Assembly: GCF_030013595.1 (NCBI RefSeq)
Contig: NZ_CP122768.1
Origin: Escherichia coli
Lineage (GTDB): Bacteria > Pseudomonadota > Gammaproteobacteria > Enterobacterales > Enterobacteriaceae
DNA: 64,000 bases
Strand: one strand, 5' to 3'
Part shown: positions 14,250-39,472 of the stretch, in pieces
Position numbering within the stretch: the stretch's first letter is position 1
Layout: each line of letters begins with the position of its first letter
Program-made: the position numbers and the translations under genes
The notes under the pieces: generated by a model
Seen by the model: only the letters and a program-made list of their open reading frames with translations
Databases searched by the model: none
What the model was told of the DNA's origin: nothing

Positions 14250-14854
14250 TATCTTTCAGCGCTCATAAGAAGCACACTCCGACAACGATTAATCGCAGTC
14301 CAGAGAAGCAGAATTGAAGTAATGCTCCATAAAAGATTATTCCATTGCATCCATTGTGGATAAATGGCAATGGCCAGCCCCCACAAACCAAATATTAACG
14401 CGCGATCGCTTTTGCCAAATGGACCGACATAACTACGAATACCGTTAATCGTCTGCGCGAGTAAACCGCAAAACTCGGTCAATATGGTGCAAAATAACAT
14501 GAGTATCACGAGTGATGCATTACTTTCAGGTAAAAATAAAAACGGTAAATAGAGCGCAATATCGGAAATAACATCGCCAGTCTCATTCAAAATCGCCCCA
14601 AGACGTGTTTGCTGATTGCACTCACGCGCCAACATGCCATCCAGCGCATTGAGTGCCATACGAATAAAAAGCACGATGGGCAATAGCAGAAACATGCCAG
14701 GATATGGCACCAACGCCAACAACAAACCGGTGAGAAGAGAAAGTGCCAAAGCGGCAAGTGTGATCTGATTTGCAGACACTTGCAGCTTATGAAGCCAAAA
14801 CATCGTCGGCCTTAACAGCGACTGAAAGAGCGGTTTTATCTGGTAGAGCGTCAT
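14249..14854 (-). CDS. ynbA: CDP-alcohol phosphatidyltransferase family protein
   Basis: 201 aa from MTLYQIK. Motif DGMLARECNQQTRLGAILNETGDVISD. Its stop overlaps the ynbB start. Confidence 0.9.
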   Translation of the reverse strand: MTLYQIKPLFQSLLRPTMFWLHKLQVSANQITLAALALSLLTGLLLALVPYPGMFLLLPIVLFIRMALNALDGMLARECNQQTRLGAILNETGDVISDIALYLPFLFLPESNASLVILMLFCTILTEFCGLLAQTINGIRSYVGPFGKSDRALIFGLWGLAIAIYPQWMQWNNLLWSITSILLLWTAINRCRSVLLMSAER

Positions 14855-15024
14855 TATCAATCCTTGATAATTCTGTTTGCGCTATGGTGCATCAATTCCC
14901 CTGACGGAGATATCGCAACACGCCGCTTCATTAAAAATTCAGAATATATCAAGGTATTGGGGACTCACCGTCAGGAATGATTATCCCCAATAAATCAAGT
15001 GGTTAAAAATTATTACGCTGTTAT

Positions 15025-17331
15025 TCAATACAACTCATCAAGTTTTCTCATCGCTTGTTCCCGTATTGCGCGCGTCTTACCGTTAAGCGCCAGCTGCCGA
15101 ACTAAATCCAGTTCAGGGTTAACAAGCTCTAACGCCAGCAAAGGATCACGTTTCAGCCTCGCCTTTAATACATCAACTGGAAAACGGGGATTATTCATCG
15201 CCACAATCCACCACTCGGGATCAATTTCTGCCGCCAGTACTGCAGGCGGTGTGTGGCGGTTGCTAAGTGCGCCGAACTTGAAAAATGTGAGATTGCTTTT
15301 CGCCAGTGTACTCCACCATATACGATCCGGTTGTTTTGCCAGTACATCCAGTTGTGCTAACGCATCGGGGTCTAGTGCATAATATACACGTAACGCTTCG
15401 TTAACCTGCGCACGGGAACTGTTTTCCTGCCTCAGAAAAAACTTCGCCAAAATATCATTGCGTGGCGTGTTTTGCTGTAATTCCTTGAGAACAACAGCGG
15501 GTAAATTATCCCAACTAATTAATGCACTCTCTAAAAAGTCCCAGCCTTCCGAACGTATCAGAGAGGTGGCATTTAATAGCATCTGGTCATCAACTTCACC
15601 GTGGCTAATCAGCTCAGACAAAATCATATCAGCGCTGGTTTCATATGCTGCAGAATCTGCTTTCGGATTATTTTTTCGATGCGATAAAGCGCGATGCCAA
15701 ATTTTTTGTTTCATCGCCGTACTCAGATACTGATTTTTCGCCAGATTACTCCACCCCGCAGGATCGTTGAAACGTGTCAATAACCGTTGTAAAGCGGCGT
15801 CAGAGTGAATTACCTGCATATCCTGACAGCAAAAATAGGCAGGAAATTTTTTCTCCATCTTTTTAACAAAATTAAACTGTAAGTTATCTGGCAATGCTAA
15901 AAATAACACACGTATTAGATCATCGTCATTCTCGAATTTTTGGTGTAAATATACTGCTATTTTGTCACTCTCTTGTGGCGTCATCCGCAACAATTGACCA
16001 TGGTGTTTCATCTCTGCCAGCTTTGACGCTAAGCTTGTGACAACATCGTTTGATGAATCGTTCGCCAACTGCATTGCCTGATTGTAGGTGAGTTGTCCTC
16101 CAGCACCGACCTGACGAATAGAGAAATCATCACTGCGGATATAGCCATCAATAATGGATTCGGGCAATAACCACGCATCTTTATAAAGCTCCTGAATGAT
16201 CATATCCCAATCTCTTTTCGCCAGAGTCATGACGATATCCAGAGGGAGATTTTCACGTAGCGCAAGATTCAACGGACCGACACCATCAGGTAGATGACTC
16301 ATTCGCGTCATTATTTCGACAGAGAGCGGTTCACGGTCGAGCAACCCCAGAACAACAGGCTGGTAACCCAATTGCTGATCGGTCAACTCCAGAATCTCAT
16401 TGTCAGGCATATATCTCGCCATACTTGCAATCGTTTGTCCATCATTGCTATTAATAAGTTGTTTGCGTAGGTTAGCTGAAATTCCTTTAAGCCTTGGGAG
16501 AGTTCGCATTACGGCAAGATCAAATGTCGCAATGTCTCGTCCTTCAAATGCAGCAACTTTGCCTTCATCCAGCATTTGCAATTCCTGCACTAACTCAGGA
16601 GAAGGCTTAGGGCGAAACAGCGCTTCTTTTTTCATCTGATTACAGACATTCCCTGCCATGCGAATATTGCTTCGCTTAAAAATTTCTTTCAGAGCATCTT
16701 CATCATTTATTAGGCCCCAATAATATGCATCAGGATTTATTATCGCCAGCGCTTTTTTGACATTTTCAGTGTCATTTTTGTCACTCGCACGGACCATGAA
16801 TTCACTATTTGTCGAAGACGCAACAACAGGTGCAATTATGTCATTGATAAATATCCCACGCGCATTAATACTCCCCTTAATCGTAGACGGATTATCGTAA
16901 TATGAGTCGATAAATACCAGTCCACTTGCATTTATCGAACCGGTAATTAACAGTGGTGAATCCGTAACTATATTCGTTGCCGTCACATCACCGAGAATAA
17001 CCCATGGATTAGAAAGAGAGAAAGTGGAAATATTACCTTTGACTGTCAAATTGCCAAGAACAATCAATTTTTGATTACTCTCTATATTACCTTCTACCAC
17101 TAAATCGCCACGATGCACTTTCCAGTCCGATGCAGATAAACCGAAGGGGACAAGATTCACGCTACTGTTGATAGCTTGTTCAACTTGTTGTTTATCTTCA
17201 GCGGTAGCCGCAGAAAAAAATGGTTCAATATCAACTGCATTTGCAACACATCGAAGTTCCGCCTGTACTGGAAGACTCAGCATAAACAGGGGAAGTAAAC
17301 CTATCCAGCTGCAAATCCTGGGCTTAAACAT
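15025..17331 (-). CDS. ydbD: large secreted protein YdbD (beta-helix-like N-terminal region, helical-repeat C-terminal region)
   Basis: 768 aa from MFKPRICSWIGLLPLFMLSLPVQA (signal peptide). Synteny next to ynbA. Confidence 0.85.
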   Translation of the reverse strand: MFKPRICSWIGLLPLFMLSLPVQAELRCVANAVDIEPFFSAATAEDKQQVEQAINSSVNLVPFGLSASDWKVHRGDLVVEGNIESNQKLIVLGNLTVKGNISTFSLSNPWVILGDVTATNIVTDSPLLITGSINASGLVFIDSYYDNPSTIKGSINARGIFINDIIAPVVASSTNSEFMVRASDKNDTENVKKALAIINPDAYYWGLINDEDALKEIFKRSNIRMAGNVCNQMKKEALFRPKPSPELVQELQMLDEGKVAAFEGRDIATFDLAVMRTLPRLKGISANLRKQLINSNDGQTIASMARYMPDNEILELTDQQLGYQPVVLGLLDREPLSVEIMTRMSHLPDGVGPLNLALRENLPLDIVMTLAKRDWDMIIQELYKDAWLLPESIIDGYIRSDDFSIRQVGAGGQLTYNQAMQLANDSSNDVVTSLASKLAEMKHHGQLLRMTPQESDKIAVYLHQKFENDDDLIRVLFLALPDNLQFNFVKKMEKKFPAYFCCQDMQVIHSDAALQRLLTRFNDPAGWSNLAKNQYLSTAMKQKIWHRALSHRKNNPKADSAAYETSADMILSELISHGEVDDQMLLNATSLIRSEGWDFLESALISWDNLPAVVLKELQQNTPRNDILAKFFLRQENSSRAQVNEALRVYYALDPDALAQLDVLAKQPDRIWWSTLAKSNLTFFKFGALSNRHTPPAVLAAEIDPEWWIVAMNNPRFPVDVLKARLKRDPLLALELVNPELDLVRQLALNGKTRAIREQAMRKLDELY

Positions 17332-17354
17332 ATGCACTCCATGCCATTAAAAAA

Positions 17355-18072
17355 GAATAAATATCCTCCGGCATAGCCGGAGGTTTTTCAAATGCGCCTG
17401 TAAGGCTCTGTTACCAGCCGCGCCCTAACAGGCGCATACGATCTGACATTTGCATTCAACTTCGTTACTTACGGCCCGTAAACGGGCTGCCCGGATATGG
17501 AATCGATAACTGCTCCCCCATTTTATCCTCTTCAAGCTGGTGCTTTATGTAGTCCTGTATCTTCGCCGTGTTCTTACCCACCGTATCGACATAGTACCCT
17601 CGGCACCAGAACTCCCTGTTTCTGTATTTGAATTTCAAATCCCCAAACTGCTCGTAAAGCATCAGACTGCTTTTCCCTTTCAGATATCCCATAAAGCCGG
17701 ATACGCTCATTTTGGGTGGGATTTCCACAAGCATATGGATATGATCTGCGCAGCACTCTGCTTCCAGAATCCGTACGCTTTTCCACTCACACAGCTTTCT
17801 CAAAATACTGCCTATCGCCCTACGCTTCTCTCCGTAAAACGCCAGTCTTCGGTATTTCGGCGCAAAAACTATGTGATATTTACAGTTCCAGCGGGTGTGC
17901 GCTAAGCTCTTTTCGTCCCCCATTGGGACCCCCTTTTGATTTCTTGTTTGACACTTGCAGTTGCCAGACCGCAAGGTGTTTTAACAAATCAAAAGGGGTT
18001 TTAATAACTGGCTCAAAGCTGAAAGCTTTCCGGAACCCCCAGCCTAGCTGGGGGTTTTCTGTGCACAAATAA
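17355..18072 (-). mobile_element. IS200 copy (IS200/IS605 family); ends approximate (about +/-20 bp)
   Basis: Contains an IS200 tnpA. Subterminal hairpins AACCCCCAGC-cta-GCTGGGGGTT (18037-18059), ATGCGCCTGT...ACAGGCGCAT (17392-17433) and CCTCCGG-cata-GCCGGAGG (17363-17381). Size about 0.7 kb, as expected for IS200. Confidence 0.8.
17465..17923 (-). CDS. tnpA: IS200 Y1 (HUH) transposase TnpA
   Basis: 152 aa, MGDEKSLAHTRWNCKYHIVFAPKYRR...HIHMLVEIPP...YYVDTVG. HUH motif HIHML and catalytic Tyr region. Near-identical to Salmonella IS200 TnpA as I recall it. Confidence 0.95.
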   Translation of the reverse strand: MGDEKSLAHTRWNCKYHIVFAPKYRRLAFYGEKRRAIGSILRKLCEWKSVRILEAECCADHIHMLVEIPPKMSVSGFMGYLKGKSSLMLYEQFGDLKFKYRNREFWCRGYYVDTVGKNTAKIQDYIKHQLEEDKMGEQLSIPYPGSPFTGRK

Positions 18073-18102
18073 AAAACCGCAACCTGTATCAGCGTTGCGG
18101 TT
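18068..18102 (-). terminator. rho-independent terminator downstream of paaY
   Basis: Minus strand: AACCGCAAC-N10-GTTGCGGTT followed by TTTTATTT. Confidence 0.7.
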
Positions 18103-18145
18103 TGTGTATCACATGCTAAAAATTAGAACGTCCAGCATCAGGACG

Positions 18146-18736
18146 TTACTGTTTCGGTCGCAGATTCTCATCAAATACCAGGCGCTGCCTGCCAGGTTCA
18201 ACTTCCCGCAATGGCTCGACTTGATGTAACGTCTGCTTACAGCGTGTCACCAGCACCTGGTACTCATGCGCACCCTGCTTTTTCCATGCCAACTCCTGCT
18301 CACTGAGTTCACGAATCGCTTTCGCCGGGCTGCCGACAATCAGGTAATTAGCTGGCATTTCTGCTTTGGCTTTCACAAATGCGGATGCGCCAACAATGCT
18401 GTTCTCGCCAATCACCGCACCGTCTATCACTACCGCGTTCATTCCCACTAATGCATTGCGGCGGATAATGCAGCCGTGAAGGATAGCGCTATGACCAATA
18501 TGTCCATCTTCTTCCACGACAGTATCCTGCTCGGGAAAACCGTGCATAACGCAATTATCCTGAATGTTCGCGCCATCTTTCACCACGATACGACCAAAAT
18601 CGCCACGCAGGCTGGCATTTGGCCCAACGTAAACACCCTTGCCGAGAATAACATCGCCGATCAATACCGCTGTCGGATGAACAAAACTCTCTTCTGGCAC
18701 AACCGGAGTCAGACCGTCTATCTGATAAATTGGCAT
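18146..18736 (-). CDS. paaY: hexapeptide-repeat thioesterase/acyltransferase PaaY (orphaned)
   Basis: 196 aa, [29 protein letters not shown]..., left-handed beta-helix repeats. Recognised as PaaY. Confidence 0.9.
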
Positions 18737-18867
18737 AACGCGTCCTGTTCAATATTCAAGCCGCCAAAACGTTGAAAATACAGGCTTCCCGGCGCAGGCA
18801 GTTCACCGACCGAGGTTTCACCTTTTTCACTAACGAACGCTAAAGCAGCAGGCGCTACGCGCTGATA
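18718..18867 (-). pseudogene. paaX: 3' remnant of paaX (last ~49 codons)
   Basis: Minus frame ...[49 protein letters not shown] matches the PaaX C-terminus as I recall it. Upstream residues are unrelated. The stop overlaps the paaY start, as in the paa operon. Confidence 0.7.
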
Positions 18868-18870
18868 AAG

Positions 18871-19077
18871 TTTGCCGATAAAGGTTTGGTGGTCGCGCAA
18901 TATATTCGTAACCGTCGTCTCGATTTTTGTGCTGATGCGATTCGCCATGCCGCAGATGATGAAAAACTGGCAGGTATTGGCTTTCATTGGGGATTTTCCG
19001 ATCAGAGTCATTTTTCAACGGTATTTAAGCAACGCTTTGGGATGACGCCAGGCGAGTATCGACGTAAATTCCGCTAA
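18871..19077 (+). pseudogene. feaR: 3' remnant of feaR (AraC-family HTH, last ~68 codons)
   Basis: Plus frame FADKGLVVAQYIRNRRLDFCADAIRHAADDEKLAGIGFHWGFSDQSHFSTVFKQRFGMTPGEYRRKFR* is an AraC C-terminal HTH signature. It is convergent with ydbL as feaR is in K-12. An in-frame stop lies at 18841. Confidence 0.7.
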
Positions 19078-19248
19078 CTAATTCGCGTTGCATGTACAGC
19101 AACGCGAATTAGTTAAAACAGATATTTGACTATGCATTTTTCAGGGCGAAAGGCAATTTGACAGGAATTTTTGAATATTCACCTTGTTTCCGGAAAATAG
19201 AATAATCGCCTTCTCCTGTAGCGTTATCCCGATATTGCGGTTTTGCTA

Positions 19249-19575
19249 TTAAAATTTTCGCACCCATTTACCGTTTATCCCTTGTACATATTCCCCCGGT
19301 TTAGCCCGAGCTACGAGCTTTTGCCCGGCGAGTTTCGCGATATCATCTACCGAGACATTATTTTGCTTTGCCAGTTGTTGGTAACTCGCTTTACGTTCGG
19401 CATTAATGTCGTTTACTAATTTCTCTGTTTCAGCATCTGTTTTCAGCGCAACCAGATAACCATAAAATGTTTCCCCTACCCGCCCCTGAGTTCTGGCTTC
19501 ATCCAGAGTCAATGCCATTACATTGCTGCTTACAAGCCCAACAAGAAACGCACAAAGAAGTAATGTTTTCTTCAT
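19249..19575 (-). CDS. ydbL: periplasmic DUF1318 protein YdbL
   Basis: 108 aa from MKKTLLLCAFLVGLVSSNVMA (signal peptide). Operon with ydbH-ynbE. Confidence 0.9.
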   Translation of the reverse strand: MKKTLLLCAFLVGLVSSNVMALTLDEARTQGRVGETFYGYLVALKTDAETEKLVNDINAERKASYQQLAKQNNVSVDDIAKLAGQKLVARAKPGEYVQGINGKWVRKF

Positions 19576-19582
19576 CATCGCC

Positions 19583-19768
19583 TCAGAAAAGATCGCTACG
19601 AGTCTCAAGCAGCTCTTCGACATCTTTGTCTGCCTTGATGATGATCTCATGCTCAATTTTAACGTTCATATTGATAGTGATCGGTTCCTTAGGTGCAGCG
19701 ACTTCAATGCGAGGCGTACAGCCAACCAGCATAAAAGATGACGTCAACGCAGCCAGTAAAATTTTCAT
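19583..19768 (-). CDS. ynbE: small lipoprotein YnbE
   Basis: 61 aa, lipobox MLVGC. Its ATG overlaps the ydbH stop. Confidence 0.9.
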   Translation of the reverse strand: MKILLAALTSSFMLVGCTPRIEVAAPKEPITINMNVKIEHEIIIKADKDVEELLETRSDLF

Positions 19769-22404
19769 TGTTTTTCCTCACACTCTTTTCCTTGCGGACA
19801 GTCATTTCCCGGCAGACGTGCGTTCTGCTCCAACCATGCCTGGAGATTATCGCCAAAGCGTAAACTGCGCCACAGCGTAAAAATATTCTCTTCATGATGG
19901 TAATTAAGGTTTACCGTACCGCTTTTACCATCAACGCGACTGGTACCTGTAATGTTGGCCTGCATGGTTAATAAACCGAGATTATCTAAGTTAATTTTTG
20001 TCGATGAACGGCTAATTTCCATATAGCGCAACCAGTTAATTGCTGAACCCGCAGTCATATTATCTTTTACCACCGCATCAGCAGTGTCTTTATCCAGCCG
20101 CAAGGTCATTGGCCCACTATTTGCCAGCCAGCCATCTTTCACTATCCATTTTTCATTGTTTAGCCATAACGGCAATGCACCACTAAATGCCCCGGACATG
20201 GCGAATTGTTTCGGATTGACGGCGCTAACCAGTTCGCTGGATGAGAGATTATTCAGCCGCAACAGCGCCGGGTCATGTTGCGGCATGCGTAATTGTTTCA
20301 TCAGCACGTTACCGCCTAACACATCGACGCTAACATCAGTCAACAGCAATGGTTCTTCTTCTGTCCACGGATAGCGCCCTTGCAAATCAGCCGTAATATT
20401 TTTCGCTGTCACCAGATTAATCACTTCGGCAATTCGCAACGTAACGGGGCCGCGAGTCCCCAGATGCCAGGCTCCATCGGCAAAACGGAAAGGCAGGACA
20501 AAATCGACACCGTTAACCTGATTATCTGGCATCCAGGCACTACCGCCTTTCAACACGCCGTGCCCTCCCGCGCGGAATCCTTGTTCAGGCGCAGCAGAAA
20601 ATGCAACCTGAGCATACAGTTCACCATCGCGTAAGTTCATCTTCCAGTCGGGTGGCACCAGCGGCTGGAATACAGTCAGTGATTGTTTAGGCCACCAGGC
20701 GTTACCGCGCAGACGAATACCGTCCCAGCGACCATTTACCCGAACCGGGCCAATCTCACCAGCATGTAAATCGCCTTTAAAGAGGAAATACGTCGGATCG
20801 CGTCCATCGACGCTAAATTTTAAGGTTGATGGCGGTAACACACTGCCGCCAGTGAACAGCGTTTGCCCGGCGTCCAGTGACAGCGCGCCGCTAAAGGAGG
20901 GATGCTGTGCGTCACGTACCCAGACGACGGGCTTGTCGAGAATTAGTCGCGGCTTTTCTACCGTCATCGTACCGTATTGTAACTGGTCGAAACCGGTGGA
21001 GAGATCGGTCAGCGTAATCGTGCTGTCATGCCACTCACCCTTTCCTGCGACATCCCAGGTGGCATTCATCGGTGTAAAACTGCCTTTTCCCCAGTAGCGC
21101 CACTGCCAGCGGCCAGCGTCAGGGAGAAAATCATTCGCCAGTCCATCCATATGCAGCACGAAATCGCCCAGTTCATTTTCATGCGCCTGCAAAATGGCCT
21201 GCAAACGTCCGTCAACACCACGTTGGGTGACTTTTACACCCGCTAAAGGCCAGCGGATTTCATCGATGTCCAGCGAATCAATGACTCTTCCCTTTGAACG
21301 AAGTAACGCGCCAGGCTCAAAGGCCAGCGTTGGGTCAGTCAGACTTCCGCTTAGCTTCGCAGGTAAACGGGCATATAAAATGAGGTCCGCCTGTTTCGCT
21401 TCACCGGTCAGCTGCAGAGGCAGCTGGCTGTTATCCATGCTTAATTTTCCTGGGCCAAAATTAAGCACCGCGTTGCCTTTACCCGCTTGCCCCTGGGTCA
21501 GCACACTCAGTCGTCCGCTGACCAGAGCGTTCTCGAGCCCTGCCTGCCAGTTGTCGACTTTGACACCCAGTCTGCCACTCAAAGGAAAACCTGCATACGG
21601 CCAGCTCCAGCGACCATCGCTTACAGTCAATTGTTGGCGAGTAATTTGCCACGGCAAATCGAGCAACGGATCGCCATTATCCCGTGCCAGCACAATCAAT
21701 TGCCCGCTATTTTCCTGCCAGTCCAGCTCGGCATCCACCAGTGAAGGCTCCTGCGGCAAGTTTAACGTCGCAGTAGCATGACCACTTACCGGAAGTCCAT
21801 CCGGCACGAGCGGCATAGTAAATTCCCCCACCAGTTTTATCGGTGGCTGATTTTCAAACGCGGCGACATTCAGTTCGCTGACTGTAAGTTGTTGCCCTTT
21901 AAGCTGGCCTTGAAATTTAACTTTTTCGCCCTGATAACGCAGTTGCTGGATATCAGAGGTTAACGCGAGAGAGAGTTTTCCCTGCCACTCCTGCCAGGGA
22001 GAAAAAATCAGTTTATCGATATTGATCCAGGTGTTAGGCAACATGGCCTGCCACTGCGCGAGGGTTTTTGGAGCGGCAGGCGATTGCTCCGTCTGCGGCA
22101 ATTTCGCCAGACAAGCAGAATCAAGTTCTACCGTGCCGACGTTCAATAACCAGCGGCTCGGATGTGAAAGGCTGGCGTTGGTGATATGCGCAAGCTGACA
22201 ATCTCCCACCAGATAACGGAGATCGGGAATGATTAAACCTTTACGCGTAATGCGTGGGCTTTCATCTAATGCAATACGTGTCCCGAGCGGTAGCCAGATG
22301 CCCGCCAGCGTGGGAACCCACAAGCCGAGCGTCATCAGCAGCGTCAACGGCACAAGAATAATCAGTAATAACAGCGCGAGAACGGCTTTATATTTACCCA
22401 GCAT
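19765..22404 (-). CDS. ydbH: AsmA-like envelope protein YdbH
   Basis: 879 aa, N-terminal TM anchor (AVLALLLLIILVPLTLLMTLGLWV). Recognised sequence. Confidence 0.9.
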   Translation of the reverse strand: MLGKYKAVLALLLLIILVPLTLLMTLGLWVPTLAGIWLPLGTRIALDESPRITRKGLIIPDLRYLVGDCQLAHITNASLSHPSRWLLNVGTVELDSACLAKLPQTEQSPAAPKTLAQWQAMLPNTWINIDKLIFSPWQEWQGKLSLALTSDIQQLRYQGEKVKFQGQLKGQQLTVSELNVAAFENQPPIKLVGEFTMPLVPDGLPVSGHATATLNLPQEPSLVDAELDWQENSGQLIVLARDNGDPLLDLPWQITRQQLTVSDGRWSWPYAGFPLSGRLGVKVDNWQAGLENALVSGRLSVLTQGQAGKGNAVLNFGPGKLSMDNSQLPLQLTGEAKQADLILYARLPAKLSGSLTDPTLAFEPGALLRSKGRVIDSLDIDEIRWPLAGVKVTQRGVDGRLQAILQAHENELGDFVLHMDGLANDFLPDAGRWQWRYWGKGSFTPMNATWDVAGKGEWHDSTITLTDLSTGFDQLQYGTMTVEKPRLILDKPVVWVRDAQHPSFSGALSLDAGQTLFTGGSVLPPSTLKFSVDGRDPTYFLFKGDLHAGEIGPVRVNGRWDGIRLRGNAWWPKQSLTVFQPLVPPDWKMNLRDGELYAQVAFSAAPEQGFRAGGHGVLKGGSAWMPDNQVNGVDFVLPFRFADGAWHLGTRGPVTLRIAEVINLVTAKNITADLQGRYPWTEEEPLLLTDVSVDVLGGNVLMKQLRMPQHDPALLRLNNLSSSELVSAVNPKQFAMSGAFSGALPLWLNNEKWIVKDGWLANSGPMTLRLDKDTADAVVKDNMTAGSAINWLRYMEISRSSTKINLDNLGLLTMQANITGTSRVDGKSGTVNLNYHHEENIFTLWRSLRFGDNLQAWLEQNARLPGNDCPQGKECEEKQ

Positions 22405-22611
22405 GGGTAGTTAATATCCTGATTTAGCGAAAAATTAAGCATTCAATACGGGTATTGTGGCATGTTTAACCGTTCAGTTGAAGGTTGCGCCTACACTAAG
22501 CATAGTTGTTGATGAATTTTTCAATATCGCCATAGCTTTCAATTATATTTGAAATTTTGTAAAATATTTTTAGTAGCTTAAATGTGATTCAACATCACTG
22601 GAGAAAGTCTT

Positions 22612-23601
22612 ATGAAACTCGCCGTTTATAGCACAAAACAGTACGACAAGAAGTACCTGCAACAGGTGAACGAGTCCTTTGGCTTTGAGCTGGAATTTTT
22701 TGACTTTCTGCTGACGGAAAAAACCGCTAAAACTGCCAATGGCTGCGAAGCGGTATGTATTTTCGTAAACGATGACGGCAGCCGCCCGGTGCTGGAAGAG
22801 CTGAAAAAGCACGGCGTTAAATATATCGCCCTGCGCTGTGCCGGTTTCAATAACGTCGACCTTGACGCGGCAAAAGAACTGGGGCTGAAAGTAGTCCGTG
22901 TTCCAGCCTATGATCCAGAAGCCGTTGCTGAACACGCCATCGGTATGATGATGACGCTGAACCGCCGTATTCATCGCGCGTATCAGCGTACTCGTGACGC
23001 CAACTTCTCTCTGGAAGGTCTGACCGGCTTTACTATGTATGGCAAAACGGCAGGCGTTATCGGTACCGGTAAAATCGGTGTGGCGATGCTGCGCATTCTG
23101 AAAGGTTTTGGTATGCGTCTGCTGGCGTTCGATCCGTATCCAAGTGCGGCGGCACTGGAACTCGGTGTGGAGTATGTCGATCTGCCAACCCTGTTCTCTG
23201 AATCAGACGTTATCTCTCTGCACTGCCCGCTGACACCGGAAAACTACCATCTGTTGAACGAAGCCGCCTTCGATCAGATGAAAAATGGCGTGATGATCGT
23301 CAATACCAGTCGCGGTGCATTGATTGATTCTCAGGCGGCAATTGAAGCGCTGAAAAATCAGAAAATTGGTTCGTTGGGTATGGACGTGTATGAGAACGAA
23401 CGCGATCTGTTCTTTGAAGACAAATCCAACGACGTGATCCAGGATGACGTGTTCCGTCGTCTGTCTGCCTGCCACAACGTGCTGTTTACCGGGCACCAGG
23501 CATTCCTGACAGCAGAAGCACTGACCAGTATTTCTCAGACTACGCTGCAAAACTTAAGCAATCTGGAAAAAGGCGAAACCTGCCCGAACGAACTGGTTTA
23601 A
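22612..23601 (+). CDS. ldhA: fermentative D-lactate dehydrogenase
   Basis: 329 aa. NAD-binding GVIGTGKIG. D-2-hydroxyacid dehydrogenase family. Confidence 0.95.
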   Translation: MKLAVYSTKQYDKKYLQQVNESFGFELEFFDFLLTEKTAKTANGCEAVCIFVNDDGSRPVLEELKKHGVKYIALRCAGFNNVDLDAAKELGLKVVRVPAYDPEAVAEHAIGMMMTLNRRIHRAYQRTRDANFSLEGLTGFTMYGKTAGVIGTGKIGVAMLRILKGFGMRLLAFDPYPSAAALELGVEYVDLPTLFSESDVISLHCPLTPENYHLLNEAAFDQMKNGVMIVNTSRGALIDSQAAIEALKNQKIGSLGMDVYENERDLFFEDKSNDVIQDDVFRRLSACHNVLFTGHQAFLTAEALTSISQTTLQNLSNLEKGETCPNELV

Positions 23602-23711
23602 TCTTGCCGCTCCCCTGCATTCCAGGGGAGCTGATTCAGATAATCCCCAATGACCTTTCATCCTCTATTCTTAAAATAGTCCTGAGTCAGAAACTGTAAT
23701 TGAGAACCACA

Positions 23712-24134
23712 ATGAAGAAAGTAGCCGCGTTTGTTGCGCTAAGCCTGCTGATAGCGGGATGTGTAAGTAATGACAAAATTGCTGTAACCCCAGAACAGCT
23801 ACAGCATCATCGCTTTGTGCTGGAAAGCGTAAACGGTAAGCCCGTGACCAGCGATAAAAATCCGCCAGAAATCAGCTTTGGTGAAAAGATGATGATTTCC
23901 GGCAGCATGTGTAACCGCTTTAGCGGTGAAGGCAAACTGTCTAATGGTGAACTGACAGCCAAAGGGCTGGCAATGACCCGTATGATGTGCGCTAACCCGC
24001 AGCTTAATGAACTCGATAACACCATTAGCGAAATGCTGAAAGAAGGTGCACAAGTGGATCTGACCGCGAACCAGTTAACGCTGGCGACCGCGAAACAGAC
24101 ATTAACTTATAAGCTGGCGGATTTAATGAATTAA
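23712..24134 (+). CDS. hslJ: heat-inducible lipoprotein HslJ (META domain)
   Basis: 140 aa from MKKVAAFVALSLLIAGC (lipobox). Confidence 0.9.
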   Translation: MKKVAAFVALSLLIAGCVSNDKIAVTPEQLQHHRFVLESVNGKPVTSDKNPPEISFGEKMMISGSMCNRFSGEGKLSNGELTAKGLAMTRMMCANPQLNELDNTISEMLKEGAQVDLTANQLTLATAKQTLTYKLADLMN

Positions 24135-24670: not shown

Positions 24671-27600
24671 ATGATTACTATTGACGGTAATGGCGCGGTT
24701 GCTTCGGTGGCGTTTCGCACCAGTGAAGTTATCGCCATCTACCCTATTACCCCCAGTTCCACAATGGCAGAACAGGCTGATGCCTGGGCCGGAAACGGCT
24801 TGAAGAACGTTTGGGGAGACACACCACGCGTGGTTGAAATGCAGTCGGAAGCGGGTGCTATCGCTACCGTGCATGGCGCTTTGCAGACGGGTGCCCTTTC
24901 AACATCGTTTACGTCATCGCAGGGTTTGCTGCTGATGATCCCGACGCTGTACAAACTGGCAGGCGAACTGACGCCATTTGTCCTGCATGTAGCGGCACGT
25001 ACCGTTGCCACACATGCACTCTCTATTTTTGGCGATCATTCCGACGTTATGGCGGTGCGCCAGACGGGTTGCGCGATGTTGTGTGCGGCTAACGTCCAGG
25101 AAGCGCAAGACTTTGCTCTCATTTCGCACATCGCAACGCTGAAGAGCCGCGTGCCATTTATTCATTTCTTTGATGGTTTCCGCACGTCCCACGAAATCAA
25201 TAAAATTGTCCCGCTGGCCGATGACACTATTCTTGATCTCATGCCGCAGGCCGAAATTGATGCTCATCGCGCCCGGGCGCTCAACCCGGAACATCCGGTG
25301 ATCCGCGGTACGTCCGCCAATCCTGACACTTATTTCCAGTCTCGCGAAGCCACCAACCCGTGGTACAACGCAGTTTACGACCATGTTGAACAGGCGATGA
25401 ATGATTTCGCTGCCGCGACAGGTCGTCAGTATCAGCCGTTTGAGTATTACGGGCATCCGCAAGCGGAACGGGTGATTATCCTGATGGACTCTGCCATTGG
25501 CACCTGTGAAGAAGTCGTTGATGAATTGCTAACCCGTGGCGAAAAAGTCGGCGTGCTGAAAGTTCGCCTGTACCGTCCCTTCTCCGCCAAACACTTGCTA
25601 CAAGCTCTGCCGGGATCCGTACGCAGCGTGGCGGTACTGGACAGAACCAAAGAACCCGGTGCCCAGGCTGAACCGCTCTATCTGGATGTGATGACCGCAC
25701 TGGCAGAAGCCTTTAATAATGGCGAGCGCGAAACCCTGCCCCGTGTCATTGGTGGGCGCTATGGTCTTTCATCCAAAGAATTTGGCCCGGACTGTGTACT
25801 GGCGGTATTTGCCGAGCTCAACGCGGCTAAACCGAAAGCGCGCTTTACGGTTGGTATTTACGATGATGTGACCAATCTGTCACTGCCGTTGCCGGAAAAC
25901 ACCCTGCCAAACTCGGCGAAACTTGAAGCCTTGTTTTATGGCCTTGGTAGTGATGGCAGCGTTTCCGCGACCAAAAACAATATCAAGATTATCGGTAATT
26001 CCACGCCGTGGTACGCACAGGGCTATTTTGTTTACGACTCCAAAAAGGCGGGCGGCCTGACGGTTTCTCACCTTCGCGTGAGCGAGCAGCCGATTCGTTC
26101 CGCTTATCTGATTTCCCAGGCTGATTTTGTTGGCTGCCACCAGTTGCAGTTTATTGATAAATATCAGATGGCTGAACGTTTAAAACCTGGCGGCATTTTC
26201 CTGCTCAACACACCGTACAGCGCAGATGAAGTATGGTCGCGCTTGCCGCAGGAAGTTCAGGCCGTGTTAAACCAGAAAAAGGCGCGCTTCTATGTGATTA
26301 ACGCGGCGAAAATCGCCCGCGAATGTGGCCTGGCGGCCCGTATTAATACCGTCATGCAGATGGCTTTTTTCCATCTGACGCAAATTCTGCCTGGCGATAG
26401 CGCCCTCGCAGAATTGCAGGGTGCGATTGCCAAAAGTTACAGTAGCAAAGGTCAGGATCTGGTGGAGCGCAACTGGCAGGCTCTGGCGCTGGCGCGTGAA
26501 TCCGTAGAAGAAGTTCCGTTGCAGCCGGTTAATCCGCACAGCGCCAATCGACCGCCTGTGGTTTCCGATGCCGCTCCTGATTTCGTGAAAACCGTTACCG
26601 CGGCGATGCTCGCCGGGCTTGGTGATGCCCTCCCCGTTTCGGCGCTGCCGCCAGACGGCACCTGGCCGATGGGCACCACGCGCTGGGAAAAACGCAATAT
26701 CGCCGAAGAGATCCCCATCTGGAAAGAGGAACTCTGTACCCAATGTAACCACTGCGTCGCCGCTTGCCCACACTCAGCTATTCGCGCAAAAGTGGTACCG
26801 CCTGAAGCGATGGAAAACGCCCCTGCCAGCCTGCATTCGCTGGATGTGAAATCGCGTGATATGCGCGGGCAGAAATATGTCTTGCAGGTGGCACCGGAAG
26901 ATTGCACCGGTTGTAACCTGTGCGTCGAAGTTTGCCCGGCGAAAGACCGTCAGAATCCAGAGATTAAAGCCATCAATATGATGTCGCGGCTGGAACATGT
27001 CGAAGAAGAGAAAATCAATTACGATTTCTTCCTCAACCTGCCAGAAATCGACCGTAGCAAACTGGAACGTATTGATATTCGTACATCGCAGCTGATTACA
27101 CCGCTGTTTGAATATTCCGGTGCTTGCTCCGGTTGTGGCGAGACGCCGTATATTAAATTGCTGACTCAGCTCTATGGCGACCGGATGTTGATCGCTAACG
27201 CCACCGGCTGTTCTTCAATTTATGGCGGTAACCTGCCCTCTACACCGTATACCACCGATACCAACGGTCGTGGACCGGCATGGGCGAACTCGCTGTTTGA
27301 AGATAACGCCGAATTTGGCCTTGGTTTCCGCCTGACGGTCGATCAACACCGTGTCCGCGTGCTGCGTCTGCTGGATCAATTTGCCGATAAAATCCCGGCG
27401 GAATTACTAACTGCGTTGAAATCAGACGCCAAGCCAGAGGTTCGTCGTGAACAGGTTGCAGCTTTACGCCAGCAACTCAACGATGTTGCCGAAGCACATG
27501 AACTGCTACGTGACGCAGATGCACTGGTAGAAAAATCAATCTGGCTGATTGGTGGCGACGGCTGGGCTTACGATATCGGCTTTGGCGGTCTGGATCATGT

Positions 27601-28195
27601 ATTGAGTTTGACCGAAAACGTCAACATTCTGGTGCTGGATACGCAATGCTATTCCAATACCGGTGGTCAGGCGTCGAAAGCGACACCGCTGGGTGCAGTA
27701 ACTAAGTTTGGCGAGCATGGCAAACGTAAAGCGCGTAAAGATCTTGGCGTCAGTATGATGATGTACGGTCATGTTTATGTGGCGCAGATTTCTCTCGGCG
27801 CGCAGCTCAACCAGACGGTGAAAGCGATTCAGGAAGCGGAAGCGTATCCGGGGCCATCGCTGATCATCGCTTATAGCCCGTGTGAAGAGCATGGTTACGA
27901 TCTGGCACTCAGCCACGATCAGATGCGCCAACTCACTGCCACCGGCTTCTGGCCGCTATATCGCTTCGATCCACGTCGAGCCGATGAAGGCAAACTGCCG
28001 CTGGCACTGGATTCACGCCCGCCGTCAGAAGCACTGGAAGAAACGTTACTTCATGAGCAACGTTTCCGTCGTCTGAATTCGCAGCAGCCAGAAGTGGCAG
28101 AACAGTTATGGAAAGATGCTGCAGCTGATTTGCAAAAACGCTATGACTTCCTGGCACAAATGGCCGGAAAAGCGGAAAAAAGCAACACCGATTAA
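24671..28195 (+). CDS. ydbK: pyruvate:flavodoxin/ferredoxin oxidoreductase
   Basis: 1174 aa. Two 4Fe-4S motifs, CTQCNHCVAACP and CTGCNLCVEVCP. TPP site GGDGWAYDIGFGG. Confidence 0.95.
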   Translation: MITIDGNGAVASVAFRTSEVIAIYPITPSSTMAEQADAWAGNGLKNVWGDTPRVVEMQSEAGAIATVHGALQTGALSTSFTSSQGLLLMIPTLYKLAGELTPFVLHVAARTVATHALSIFGDHSDVMAVRQTGCAMLCAANVQEAQDFALISHIATLKSRVPFIHFFDGFRTSHEINKIVPLADDTILDLMPQAEIDAHRARALNPEHPVIRGTSANPDTYFQSREATNPWYNAVYDHVEQAMNDFAAATGRQYQPFEYYGHPQAERVIILMDSAIGTCEEVVDELLTRGEKVGVLKVRLYRPFSAKHLLQALPGSVRSVAVLDRTKEPGAQAEPLYLDVMTALAEAFNNGERETLPRVIGGRYGLSSKEFGPDCVLAVFAELNAAKPKARFTVGIYDDVTNLSLPLPENTLPNSAKLEALFYGLGSDGSVSATKNNIKIIGNSTPWYAQGYFVYDSKKAGGLTVSHLRVSEQPIRSAYLISQADFVGCHQLQFIDKYQMAERLKPGGIFLLNTPYSADEVWSRLPQEVQAVLNQKKARFYVINAAKIARECGLAARINTVMQMAFFHLTQILPGDSALAELQGAIAKSYSSKGQDLVERNWQALALARESVEEVPLQPVNPHSANRPPVVSDAAPDFVKTVTAAMLAGLGDALPVSALPPDGTWPMGTTRWEKRNIAEEIPIWKEELCTQCNHCVAACPHSAIRAKVVPPEAMENAPASLHSLDVKSRDMRGQKYVLQVAPEDCTGCNLCVEVCPAKDRQNPEIKAINMMSRLEHVEEEKINYDFFLNLPEIDRSKLERIDIRTSQLITPLFEYSGACSGCGETPYIKLLTQLYGDRMLIANATGCSSIYGGNLPSTPYTTDTNGRGPAWANSLFEDNAEFGLGFRLTVDQHRVRVLRLLDQFADKIPAELLTALKSDAKPEVRREQVAALRQQLNDVAEAHELLRDADALVEKSIWLIGGDGWAYDIGFGGLDHVLSLTENVNILVLDTQCYSNTGGQASKATPLGAVTKFGEHGKRKARKDLGVSMMMYGHVYVAQISLGAQLNQTVKAIQEAEAYPGPSLIIAYSPCEEHGYDLALSHDQMRQLTATGFWPLYRFDPRRADEGKLPLALDSRPPSEALEETLLHEQRFRRLNSQQPEVAEQLWKDAAADLQKRYDFLAQMAGKAEKSNTD

Positions 28196-28223
28196 ATGCT
28201 CTGGATAAGAATTATCCAATTCT

Positions 28224-28328
28224 AAAAAAAAGCCCGAACGACTGTTCGGGCTTGTCTCATTATTTGTTGGATAAACAGTAACAAGGGTCCAACAGAAAAT
28301 AATCTTTGTGACAATAAAGGCATATAAC
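28224..28328 (-). ncRNA. micC: MicC sRNA (Hfq-dependent repressor of ompC)
   Basis: The minus strand starts GTTATATGCCTTTATTGTCACA (the MicC 5' seed as I recall it) and ends in AAGCCCGAACAGTCGTTCGGGCTTTTTTTT. It lies between ydbK and ompN, divergent from ompN, as in K-12. Confidence 0.85.
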
Positions 28329-28555
28329 CCGCGAAGAATAACGTATAGCAAATTAAAAGTATAATTTTTATTTTGTATGTATTATCTTCGATACATTCAC
28401 CAGACTTATTATCATTTCAGAAGAATTATTTGATTAAGGTTTTACTTAAGGCGTAACAAATGATATTTATCGGCTAACTGAACTTCTCCTTTAGGATGTT
28501 TTCACTCCCCGAAATGGGGATAAAAGGCAAATAAAATAACTAAAGGATTTATTCA

Positions 28556-29689
28556 ATGAAAAGCAAAGTACTGGCACTTTTAATTCCTGCCCTGCTCGCC
28601 GCAGGTGCTGCACATGCAGCCGAAGTTTATAATAAAGACGGCAACAAATTAGATCTGTATGGCAAAGTTGATGGCCTGCATTATTTTTCTGATAATTCAG
28701 CGAAAGATGGTGACCAGAGCTATGCGCGTCTGGGTTTTAAAGGCGAAACCCAAATTAACGATCAACTCACTGGCTACGGTCAATGGGAATACAATATTCA
28801 GGCAAACAACACTGAATCCTCAAAAAACCAGTCATGGACCCGTCTGGCATTTGCCGGATTGAAATTTGCAGATTACGGTTCTTTCGATTACGGACGTAAT
28901 TATGGCGTAATGTACGACATCGAAGGCTGGACCGATATGCTGCCTGAATTTGGCGGTGACTCTTATACCAATGCAGACAACTTTATGACTGGTCGTGCCA
29001 ATGGCGTCGCGACTTATCGTAATACTGATTTCTTCGGTCTGGTAAATGGTCTGAACTTCGCGGTGCAGTATCAAGGTAACAACGAAGGTGCCAGTAATGG
29101 TCAGGAAGGCACCAACAACGGACGTGATGTTCGCCATGAAAACGGTGACGGCTGGGGTCTTTCCACAACATATGATTTAGGCATGGGCTTTAGCGCTGGT
29201 GCGGCATACACCTCTTCTGACCGCACCAATGACCAGGTTAACCATACTGCGGCGGGTGGTGATAAAGCAGACGCGTGGACTGCTGGGCTAAAATACGATG
29301 CTAACAATATTTACCTGGCAACCATGTATTCAGAAACGCGTAATATGACCCCGTTTGGCGACAGCGATTATGCTGTTGCTAACAAAACCCAGAACTTTGA
29401 AGTTACTGCACAGTACCAGTTTGATTTTGGTCTGCGTCCGGCAGTCTCTTTCCTGATGTCTAAAGGCCGTGACCTGCACGCTGCCGGTGGTGCAGACAAC
29501 CCGGCAGGTGTTGATGATAAAGATCTGGTTAAATACGCCGATGTTGGCGCGACTTACTATTTCAACAAAAATATGTCCACCTACGTTGACTATAAAATCA
29601 ACCTGTTGGATGAAGATGACAGCTTCTACGCTGCCAACGGCATCTCTACCGATGATATTGTCGCTTTAGGTCTGGTTTATCAGTTCTAA
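28556..29689 (+). CDS. ompN: outer-membrane porin OmpN
   Basis: 377 aa. Signal peptide [21 protein letters not shown]. General-porin sequence ending GLVYQF. Confidence 0.95.
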
Positions 29690-37841: not shown

Positions 37842-38306
37842 ATGAAATTGAAATTTTTATCCCTACTTCTTTTTGTGAGCTTTTCTTCACACTCATCTAA
37901 CATATCAAGAATAATATGTAAGCCATCTAATAGCAACGACACCGCAACCTCCGCAATCTGGCCCCAACCTTACCTTTTAAATGATAAATTATGCTTTAAT
38001 ATTAGAATTGACTCTGGAAATGCATGTGTTGCCGATGGTAAAAAAACAACGTGGTTTACTGAATCAGTAATTATAATGCAAAACAACGAATCATTAGGCC
38101 GTGATGATACTTGGTTTAGAGTCAATCGCCCAACAATTAATGACCTACGTATAGAATATACTGTCGAGGCATCTAGGGATAAAGTTAATTGGATTCCTCA
38201 ATCTCACGTAACTATTAATCGGATTTCTGGAGAAGCTATTGATTGGGCGATTTATGAACACGGCGGAACGTCTTACCAGTGCCATCTTGAGGGCAAAAAG
38301 ATATGA
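37842..38306 (+). CDS. secreted Cys-containing protein of unknown function (moron gene 2)
   Basis: 154 aa from the ATG at 37842 (the ORF track starts at GTG 37833). Signal peptide MKLKFLSLLLFVSFSSHS|SN. Starts 18 nt after gene 1. AT-rich. Confidence 0.7.
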   Translation: MKLKFLSLLLFVSFSSHSSNISRIICKPSNSNDTATSAIWPQPYLLNDKLCFNIRIDSGNACVADGKKTTWFTESVIIMQNNESLGRDDTWFRVNRPTINDLRIEYTVEASRDKVNWIPQSHVTINRISGEAIDWAIYEHGGTSYQCHLEGKKI

Positions 38307-38432
38307 TGCACTATCATTAAATTGACTACGGCATCCAACTCTGGCTACAATCCGAACTGAGGCGTCGAAACCTCTTACAAGCGGTACGCAACCAACCCCG
38401 TCAGTGTTGGATTTTTTATGCCTATTTTTTCA

Positions 38433-38455
38433 GTGGTTGCATCATGTGCAACCAC
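38433..38455. promoter_or_regulatory. perfect 9-bp inverted repeat (candidate operator) upstream of the AntA-like gene
   Basis: GTGGTTGCA-tcatg-TGCAACCAC, 130 nt upstream of the ATG at 38586. Confidence 0.5.
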
Positions 38456-38585
38456 ATCCCCGATCAATGTCGGGAGGGCGACGAATACAACACCCGAAAG
38501 GGGAATAAGTCCGCGGTACTTGTAGCCGTTTCGAACCTCCCGACGCCACTTTGGTTCTTCTTCGAAAAAGATACAAGAGGTCATC

Positions 38586-39149
38586 ATGACAACCCAACTG
38601 ATCCCCGTTTTCAACGGAACTATCTCAAACGAAACCATCCTTCTATGCAACGCTCGCGATCTGCATGCCTTTCTCGAAGTAGGTAAGCGCTTTGCCACTT
38701 GGATCACCGAGCGACTTAGCGAGTATGAATTCGTAGAAAATCAGGACTATGTGATTGCTTCCCAAATTCGGGAAGCAAAAGGCCGGGGAGGCCACAACCG
38801 CAAGGACTACCACCTCACCCTAGATACCGCCAAAGAGCTGGCAATGGTTGAGCGCAACGAAAAAGGCCGCCAGATCCGCCGATACTTCATCGAGTGCGAG
38901 AAGAAGCTGCGCGAAGATACCACCAGCACACAATCCCCTCTGAATGTTGACATCATCATGCGCGTCAGAAACGGCTCAGTTACCCACATTGAGCACCACA
39001 AATCAGGCTCAGTTATCACCACAGAATGGGCAATTCACTTACTACGCAAAAGTGGATGGATTGTCATGCCACGCGATGAACTTCTTAACACGCCACTGGC
39101 CCAACTGATGCCCGAAAGCTTGCCTCAAACCGGAACCTGCGTCCGGTAA
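38586..39149 (+). CDS. AntA/AntB-type phage antirepressor-like protein
   Basis: 187 aa. N-terminal AntA-type sequence ARDLHAFLEVGKRFATWITERLSEYEFVENQDY ... DYHLTLDTAKELAMVERNEKGRQIRRYFIECEKKL. Confidence 0.8.
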   Translation: MTTQLIPVFNGTISNETILLCNARDLHAFLEVGKRFATWITERLSEYEFVENQDYVIASQIREAKGRGGHNRKDYHLTLDTAKELAMVERNEKGRQIRRYFIECEKKLREDTTSTQSPLNVDIIMRVRNGSVTHIEHHKSGSVITTEWAIHLLRKSGWIVMPRDELLNTPLAQLMPESLPQTGTCVR

Positions 39150-39472
39150 CTGGTCCCATTAAAAAACACAACATCGATGTTATAGGTGGGGTTCTCTGCC
39201 CCATCTACCTTTGAAATTGCCAGCGATGCAAAATACCCGGCAAACTGTTGCTGAACCATGTTCACATAGTAGTCCGGGTAAATCTGCTGCACGATGCACT
39301 GCTGCGCTGGAATGCCGTAATTCGCGTAAAACGGCGACTCCCCCAACCCCAGCTTTAACGTCTGAATGAGCGTCGTCAGCCAGCCGTAGGAGAAATCACC
39401 GTTGGCGTCAGATTCTACAGCAACCCATTTTTTGTTGCCGTTCGCGTCGGTGACGCGGCCCCATGTTCTCAT
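39125..39472 (-). CDS. small baseplate protein (gpW position)
   Basis: 115 aa in the position preceding J in the operon order. Its 3' end overlaps the convergent AntA-like gene by 25 nt. Confidence 0.55.
   Translation of the reverse strand: MRTWGRVTDANGNKKWVAVESDANGDFSYGWLTTLIQTLKLGLGESPFYANYGIPAQQCIVQQIYPDYYVNMVQQQFAGYFASLAISKVDGAENPTYNIDVVFFNGTSYRTQVPV

Follow-up and report, generated by a model that had tools for sequence, protein, structure and literature searches.

The stretch of Escherichia coli DNA analysed here (64,000 nucleotides, hereafter the window) carries a simple chromosomal deletion, in which flanks collinear with an intact reference abut at 18869|18870 without filler. Compared with K-12 MG1655, both by blastn and base by base, the strain lacks 17,752 bp (K-12 1446586-1464337), and a 3′ fragment of feaR is joined to a 3′ fragment of paaX in their place. 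It is in our view very probable that this is a fixed chromosomal deletion allele, produced by one illegitimate recombination event that joined a point internal to paaX to a point internal to feaR. The deletion polymorphism is ordinary rather than new, being already annotated and already described at the level of gene content. Our analysis confirms to the nucleotide level what a first-pass annotation of the sequence had observed and supports its interpretation.

The missing block, its remnants and the joint

Two blastn matches to K-12 delimit the deletion. Positions 18145-18869 of the window, which cover paaY and the 3′ end of paaX, correspond to K-12 1465062-1464338 with 98.2% identity, and positions 18870-24000, which cover the 3′ end of feaR followed by ydbL, ynbE, ydbH and ldhA, correspond to K-12 1446585-1441455 with 98.0% identity. 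The two matches are collinear and meet at 18869|18870, and with about 98% identity across hundreds to thousands of bases both are far above chance. This alignment, which the first-pass annotation had proposed, fixes the breakpoints and establishes the flanks as true feaR and paaX 3′ fragments. In K-12 the absent interval comprises feaB, tynA, paaZ and paaABCDEFGHIJK in full, together with 698 nt from the 5′ end of feaR and, with the region upstream of it, 799 nt from the 5′ end of paaX; a loss of about 17 kb had been estimated beforehand for this same segment, in good agreement with the measured length. None of the 17.75-kb block was found elsewhere within the 64-kb window. On the minus strand the window reads ydbH, ynbE, ydbL, a gap and paaY, with two short frames lying within the ydbL-paaY gap (Table 1).

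Table 1. Features at and around the deletion joint (window coordinates)
Feature	Position	Strand	Basis
paaY, intact, 196 aa	18146-18736	-	ORF list; 98.2% nucleotide identity to K-12 paaY
paaX 3′ stub, 152 of 951 nt kept	18718-18869	-	blastn; RefSeq partial pseudogene "missing N-terminus"
Chimeric 97-codon ORF made by the deletion	18718-19011	-	ORF list
Deletion joint GATAAA|GTTTGCC, break between 18869 and 18870	18864-18876		base-by-base comparison
feaR 3′ stub, 208 of 906 nt kept	18870-19077	+	blastn; RefSeq partial pseudogene "missing N-terminus"
Perfect inverted repeat (17-bp arms, 7-nt loop) between the 3′ ends of ydbL and feaR, which converge here	19075-19115		repeat search
ydbL, intact core gene, feaR-side boundary of the deletion	19249-19575	-	ORF list and RefSeq annotation
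ynbE	19583-19768	-	ORF list
ydbH	19765-22404	-	ORF list

The feaR remnant, from the gene of an AraC/XylS-type activator of tynA and feaB, consists of 68 complete codons and a stop (18871-19077), and its translation is identical at 68 of 68 residues to K-12 FeaR 234-301, the C-terminal AraC-type helix-turn-helix part only. The N-terminal part and the start codon are missing, and the sequence upstream of the stub is paaX antisense. The feaR piece lies where feaR converges on ydbL in K-12 and is a 3′ gene fragment rather than a short paralogue. On the opposite strand, the remnant of paaX, which encodes the repressor of the paa operons, retains 49 complete paaX-derived codons and a stop (18718-18867); the codon at 18868-18870 is a hybrid made by the junction, with Leu replacing Ile, and there is one internal E to D change, 48 of 50 residues being identical to the K-12 C-terminus when the hybrid first codon is counted. 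The last 19 nt of this stub overlap the start of paaY, and the native paaXY operon has the same overlap. The lengths given by the first-pass annotation, about 68 residues of feaR from 18871 and about 49 of PaaX running into an intact paaY, are thus exact, paaY being full length. RefSeq marks partial pseudogenes with the exact limits 18718-18870 and 18871-19077 in a strain that matches the window completely over the 1,450 bp surrounding the junction and differs from it by one indel in the IS200 region; both stubs are already annotated in this way in carriers such as 042 and ST648. Each stub keeps the reading frame of the 3′ part of a gene found at full length in other genomes, and the two can only be remnants.

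The deletion also made a chimeric reading frame, in which 47 codons antisense to the feaR stub are fused in frame to the PaaX C-terminus. This frame is open in six of six carriers; however, all five substitutions in its new part alter the amino acid, so that there is no sign of constraint, and no promoter is predicted for it. We considered it as a new gene and, on these grounds, treat it as a by-product.

At the joint itself, the parental sequences are GATAAATGTTGA (paaX) and CCGAATGTTTGCC (feaR). The paaX-derived sequence stops at 18869 (...CGCTGATAAA) and the feaR-derived sequence begins at 18870 (GTTTGCCGATAAAGG...), a direct join of stubs that had been described as abutting within about 3 nt. 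The hexamer AATGTT is present at both parental breakpoints: the paaX side reads GATAAATGTTGATAC, the feaR side reads CCGAATGTTTGCCG, and the junction reads GATAAAGTTTGCCG, that is, AA-GTT, the hexamer with one T fewer. Given K-12-like parents the exact overlap at the break is 0 nt, although the deletion still falls within a 6-nt identity. AATGTT was seen at every breakpoint retained by the strains examined, on both sides in K-12 and MB10, and on the feaR side in strain 131, two GTDB 'E. coli' representatives and a Shigella (one further GTDB 'E. coli' representative lay outside the match window of this feaR-side comparison). K-12, MB10, strain 131 and several further strains that keep the locus wholly or in part were compared, a sample set against more than 3,000 intact genomes, and none had a parental SNP that would give perfect microhomology. 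The search for microhomology recommended by the first-pass annotation therefore has a divided outcome, since a hexamer is shared by both breakpoints but the retained copy is one T short. In the same way, the description of a single clean deletion stands as regards filler and insertion sequences, of which there are none, but the joint is not perfectly clean, AATGTT having become AAGTT.

Base inspection, a repeat search and the RefSeq annotation revealed no IS end, target duplication, filler DNA or significant repeat at the joint, in agreement with what had been noted from the letters alone. The nearest insertion sequence is an IS200 at 17358-18067, beyond paaY and about 800 bp away, and an Rfam scan of 17000-20000 returned nothing at the joint, its sole match being the IS200-associated STnc490 RNA. 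Two candidates were rejected. An exact 3-nt microhomology suggested by blastn (window 18145-18872 aligned to K-12 1465062-1464334) is a product of gapped alignment, the real case being AATGTT minus a T. A 16-nt imperfect inverted repeat, whose arms at 18079-18094 and 18860-18875 take in the joint and the paaY terminator, was judged to be chance, because K-12 paaX already matches at 13 of 16 positions there and the region is rich in such short pairs.

Distribution of the allele and other losses at the locus

The identical junction is present in 258 of 5,426 complete E. coli genomes, a carrier being any genome with at least 80% of a 901-nt junction query covered. The carriers include several ST648 strains, which we take to be phylogroup F, and EAEC 042. 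The latter is assigned to phylogroup D in its genome paper, where paa, tynA and feaR are not mentioned (PMC2808357). The first-pass annotation had proposed such a survey and had written that "this strain" has lost the pathways, which understates the scale of an allele common to 258 complete genomes. The 45-mer that spans the joint in the window recurs unchanged in every one of five further carriers (HCP5S3_I2, 042, an ST648 strain, JNE120442 and 31B22CPO057). E. coli 042 (NC_017626.1, EC042_RS27765 and EC042_RS08085) and ST648 strains have the same junction, the same stub lengths and an intact paaY as in the window. Over 1,450 bp, identity to the window is 99.5% for 042 and 98.3% for ST648; in both of them paaY is followed by pdxI, whereas in the window IS200 replaces that gene.

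At this locus at least four deletion alleles have arisen independently, the window allele among them. The genes paaABC are present in 3,147 of the 5,426 genomes and missing in 2,279 (42%). A paaY′|feaR′ junction, with strain 131 as its type (L002 7633-8211), occurs in 822 complete genomes, and a ydbA|ydbL junction, with ATCC 11775 as its type (L018 6689-7065), in 1,036; in the fourth allele an IS1 lies beside ydbL and the deletion reaches into ynbC (L019 6247-6978). The strain 131 type is an independent deletion of the same cluster at the same locus, with a joint that is IS-free as annotated and with breakpoints that differ from those of the window; since its feaR stub is longer (252 nt) and its paaY is truncated, neither allele can be derived from the other. 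In the ATCC 11775 type, also IS-free as annotated, the same cluster was lost independently and feaR and paaY are wholly removed. Taken together the three main junctions account for 2,116 genomes against the 2,279 without paaABC, or about 93% if every carrier is paaABC-negative, a status that was checked in 60 carriers of the window allele. Set against the paaABC-negative total, these junctions show that a costly accessory pathway has been lost at one locus repeatedly and independently.

The heterogeneity of this region is known from gene-carriage studies. Goldstone et al. (2016, PMC4951805) described feaRB-tynA-paaZABCDEFGHIJKXY as a "region of genomic heterogeneity" flanked by ydbH-ynbE-ydbL and ynbC-ynbD-azoR, in which several deletions arose independently, and Leimbach et al. 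(2017, PMC5422975) found the paa locus missing in the B2 and E representatives that they studied. Both deal with gene carriage, mainly in phylogroup A and bovine strains, and do not give the nucleotide-level junction of the window. Elovaara et al. (2015, PMC4640556) reported tynA in 0 of 28 O157:H7, 3 of 45 UPEC and 0 of 11 NBM isolates, with no O157:H7 or NMEC isolate carrying the gene and most UPEC isolates lacking it. CFT073, which lacks a 33-kb area at tynA (PMC4640556), has lost tynA and its neighbours as in the window, but with a larger gap and different breakpoints.

The surroundings of the locus are themselves variable. The IS200/IS605 element at 17358-18067 (tnpA 17466-17924, minus strand) sits exactly where 042, ST648 and MB10 have pdxI (ydbC) and its flanks, about 1,050 bp, so pdxI has also been lost in this strain. 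This is a much rarer event, separate from that of the feaR/paaX joint, and both IS200 junctions are common to only two complete genomes. An IS200 in the same orientation lies between pdxI and paaY in KE55 and between ydbD and pdxI in strain 405, and recombination between two such copies would leave the structure seen in the window. The STnc490 Hfq-binding sRNA (Rfam, 146 bits) maps to 17933-18056 on the minus strand, at the 5′ end of IS200. The ydbA autotransporter gene, which is 8.6 kb long in K-12 and split there by IS2 and IS30, is absent (18068-18145); about 13 nt after paaY come the last 9 nt of ydbA and then its downstream region, an arrangement also found in 042, ST648 and the paa-positive MB10. 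In ST131-like and ATCC 11775 strains, ydbA is long and divergent. The stretch 14500-17357, with ydbD (15025-17337), is 95.9% identical to 042 as against 99.6% for the adjacent paaY-ydbL stretch, a contrast that suggests a mosaic, recombined neighbourhood. Further away, nifJ/ydbK (pyruvate:flavodoxin oxidoreductase, 24671-29533) is split by an IS4-like ISVsa5 (transposase 26846-28054) and the gene of a DHA2-family MFS efflux permease (38001-39456, minus strand) is frameshifted, both according to the annotation of HCP5S3_I2. Among the GTDB 'E. coli' and Shigella representatives, L008, L014 and L016 show patchy and low protein identity across a locus that is conserved otherwise (for example 41-74% for tynA and 39-64% for paaZ), which looks like the result of error-rich assemblies rather than real divergence.

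Origin of the joint

The most likely course of events is that, in an ancestor, homology-independent recombination removed 17,752 bp (K-12 numbering) by slipped mispairing or end joining at the very short imperfect homology AATGTT, with one base lost. The N-terminal two thirds of feaR, feaB, tynA, paaZ, paaABCDEFGHIJK and 799 nt of paaX with its promoter would have been lost in this step, and no transposable element would have taken part. The joint could also be blunt and the hexamer coincidental, given that one of its T residues is missing and that K-12-like parents leave no exact overlap at the break.

We consider it improbable that the joint was reached in several steps or with the help of an IS, whether through an adjacent deletion by an IS followed by its precise loss or through a series of nested deletions. 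Such a history would be expected to reach the same end state, and the locus offers some precedents, since IS-mediated deletion is known there (GmM062, with IS1 abutting ydbL), smaller internal paa deletions are on record (PMC4951805), an IS200 stands in place of pdxI some 800 bp from the joint of the window, and the missing T could be a secondary change. However, the joint bears no IS end, target duplication or filler, the carriers sampled all have the identical joint with no intermediates seen, and the IS200 event is found in 2 genomes as opposed to 258 for the junction, which makes it the later of the two. A single illegitimate recombination event thus remains the preferred explanation.

It is very unlikely that this exact junction, with its odd missing base, would arise twice, so that one deletion event is the simplest reading for all carriers. 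The carriers nevertheless diverge by up to 2.6% over 901 bp at the locus. JNE120442 (L006 3747-4337) has the same joint, yet its paaY stands at a pS of 0.10-0.12 from that of other carriers and has an altered N-terminus (..GLTQF), and its flank looks like a recombinant from a distant lineage; its ydbD is a frameshifted pseudogene. Between the window and 042 the feaR stub differs at six positions, five of which are synonymous in the feaR frame. For this divergence to fit a single origin, homologous recombination must have acted on the flanks after the deletion, and it may have carried the allele from one lineage to another as well. The presence of the allele in phylogroup D (042) and in ST648 strains points to sufficient age or to sufficient recombination.

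That the short form is ancestral, the fea-tynA-paa block having been inserted in K-12-type strains so that the "stubs" would not be remnants, is very unlikely. Goldstone et al. did describe the paa region as seemingly "inserted between core genes" (PMC4951805), and the block is absent from 42% of the complete genomes. Yet an insertion cannot supply matching gene halves, which here are identical to K-12 at 68 of 68 and 48 of 50 residues, and judged from the sequence the truncated reading frames already refute it. In Pseudocitrobacter the order ldhA-ydbH-ynbE-ydbL-feaR-feaB-tynA-paaZ-paaA is kept, and in Pluralibacter the same order is kept from ydbH to paaZ, as far as the fetched contig extends; the gene order that these genera share beside ydbL indicates that the long form is ancestral at the site. 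At least four different junctions are, moreover, explained by independent losses and not by a single gain.

Hardly more credible is a translocated cluster, working from another place in the genome, with the junction as its excision site. Nothing speaks positively for it, but the 64-kb window alone would be insufficient against it, and the first-pass annotation had named such a relocation as a finding that would overturn its reading. We therefore used a chimeric query made of 1,450 nt across the junction and four 150-nt markers (feaB, tynA, paaA and paaK) in alternating orientation. The 60 best junction carriers include HCP5S3_I2 and LCP30S3_I5, two UK pig isolates whose identity to the window is 100% along the 1,450 nt of junction sequence in the query. 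In each of the 60 there was one matching place per chromosome, the four markers being absent elsewhere on the chromosome in 60 of 60, and only 3 of the 3,151 places matching paaABC in the whole collection are on plasmids. By the chromosomes of these 60 carriers and the paaABC matches of the collection, the block has been lost and not moved. An artefact of assembly or sequencing, such as a collapsed or mis-joined contig, has nothing in its favour and is exceedingly improbable, since 258 complete genomes, sequenced independently by many laboratories and from many hosts, have an identical junction, and the finished reference sequence of 042 is one of them.

The orphan paaY and consequences for carriers

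PaaY is a hexapeptide-repeat thioesterase. The gene is annotated as paaY in a strain identical at the locus, and the protein of the window is identical to that of E. coli 042. In the intact cluster paaXY form one autoregulated operon (PMC4640556). The region upstream of paaX that holds the promoter falls inside the missing interval, which leaves paaY without its operon promoter, as had been proposed. The sole transcription in the same direction upstream of paaY is that of ydbH-ynbE-ydbL, and promoter prediction gave no sigma-70-like site for the minus strand of the ydbL-paaY interval. The inverted repeat between the convergent ydbL and feaR ends, which is native to the site, folds with -31.7 kcal/mol (z = -6.6); it has no U-tract and is not called a terminator by a consensus scan, and on its predicted fold it is likely a barrier to read-through from ydbH-ynbE-ydbL into paaX′-paaY. 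We infer that paaY is probably silent or weakly read through, and it is probably on its way to decay.

It is in our opinion improbable that the orphan paaY is kept for a use outside the paa pathway, being read through from ydbH-ynbE-ydbL with its translation coupled to the chimeric ORF. The gene is indeed intact in all six carriers sequenced through the locus, bears its gene name in the annotation of all 60 carriers checked (the best 60 of 258), and has a pairwise pN/pS of 0.15-0.37 among carriers, but these ratios come from tiny counts that include pre-deletion branches. The flanks recombine with paa-positive strains, and in our selection analysis of paaY the substitutions were too few and the history was confounded by recombination. 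Furthermore, no promoter is predicted, a strong hairpin intervenes, and the alleles that truncate or remove paaY do so without apparent cost in 822 and 1,036 genomes. Because the counts are very small and include pre-deletion history, and because the two other common alleles truncate or remove the gene, we regard paaY as a leftover rather than a retained function.

Judging by gene content, carriers should be unable to use 2-phenylethylamine, tyramine or phenylacetate. The loss of the amine oxidase, of the phenylacetaldehyde dehydrogenase and of the activator would abolish the use of 2-phenylethylamine and tyramine, in line with the finding that tynA is required for, and enables, growth on phenylethylamine (PMC4640556), and without the paa pathway the use of phenylacetate would be lost as well. 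The scar thus accounts for the expected non-growth of the lineage on phenylethylamine, tyramine and phenylacetate, and its exact junction is a convenient lineage marker for the 258 complete genomes that carry it, including EAEC 042 and ST648. The pattern of repeated loss to which it belongs is in keeping with existing pan-genome studies of the region.
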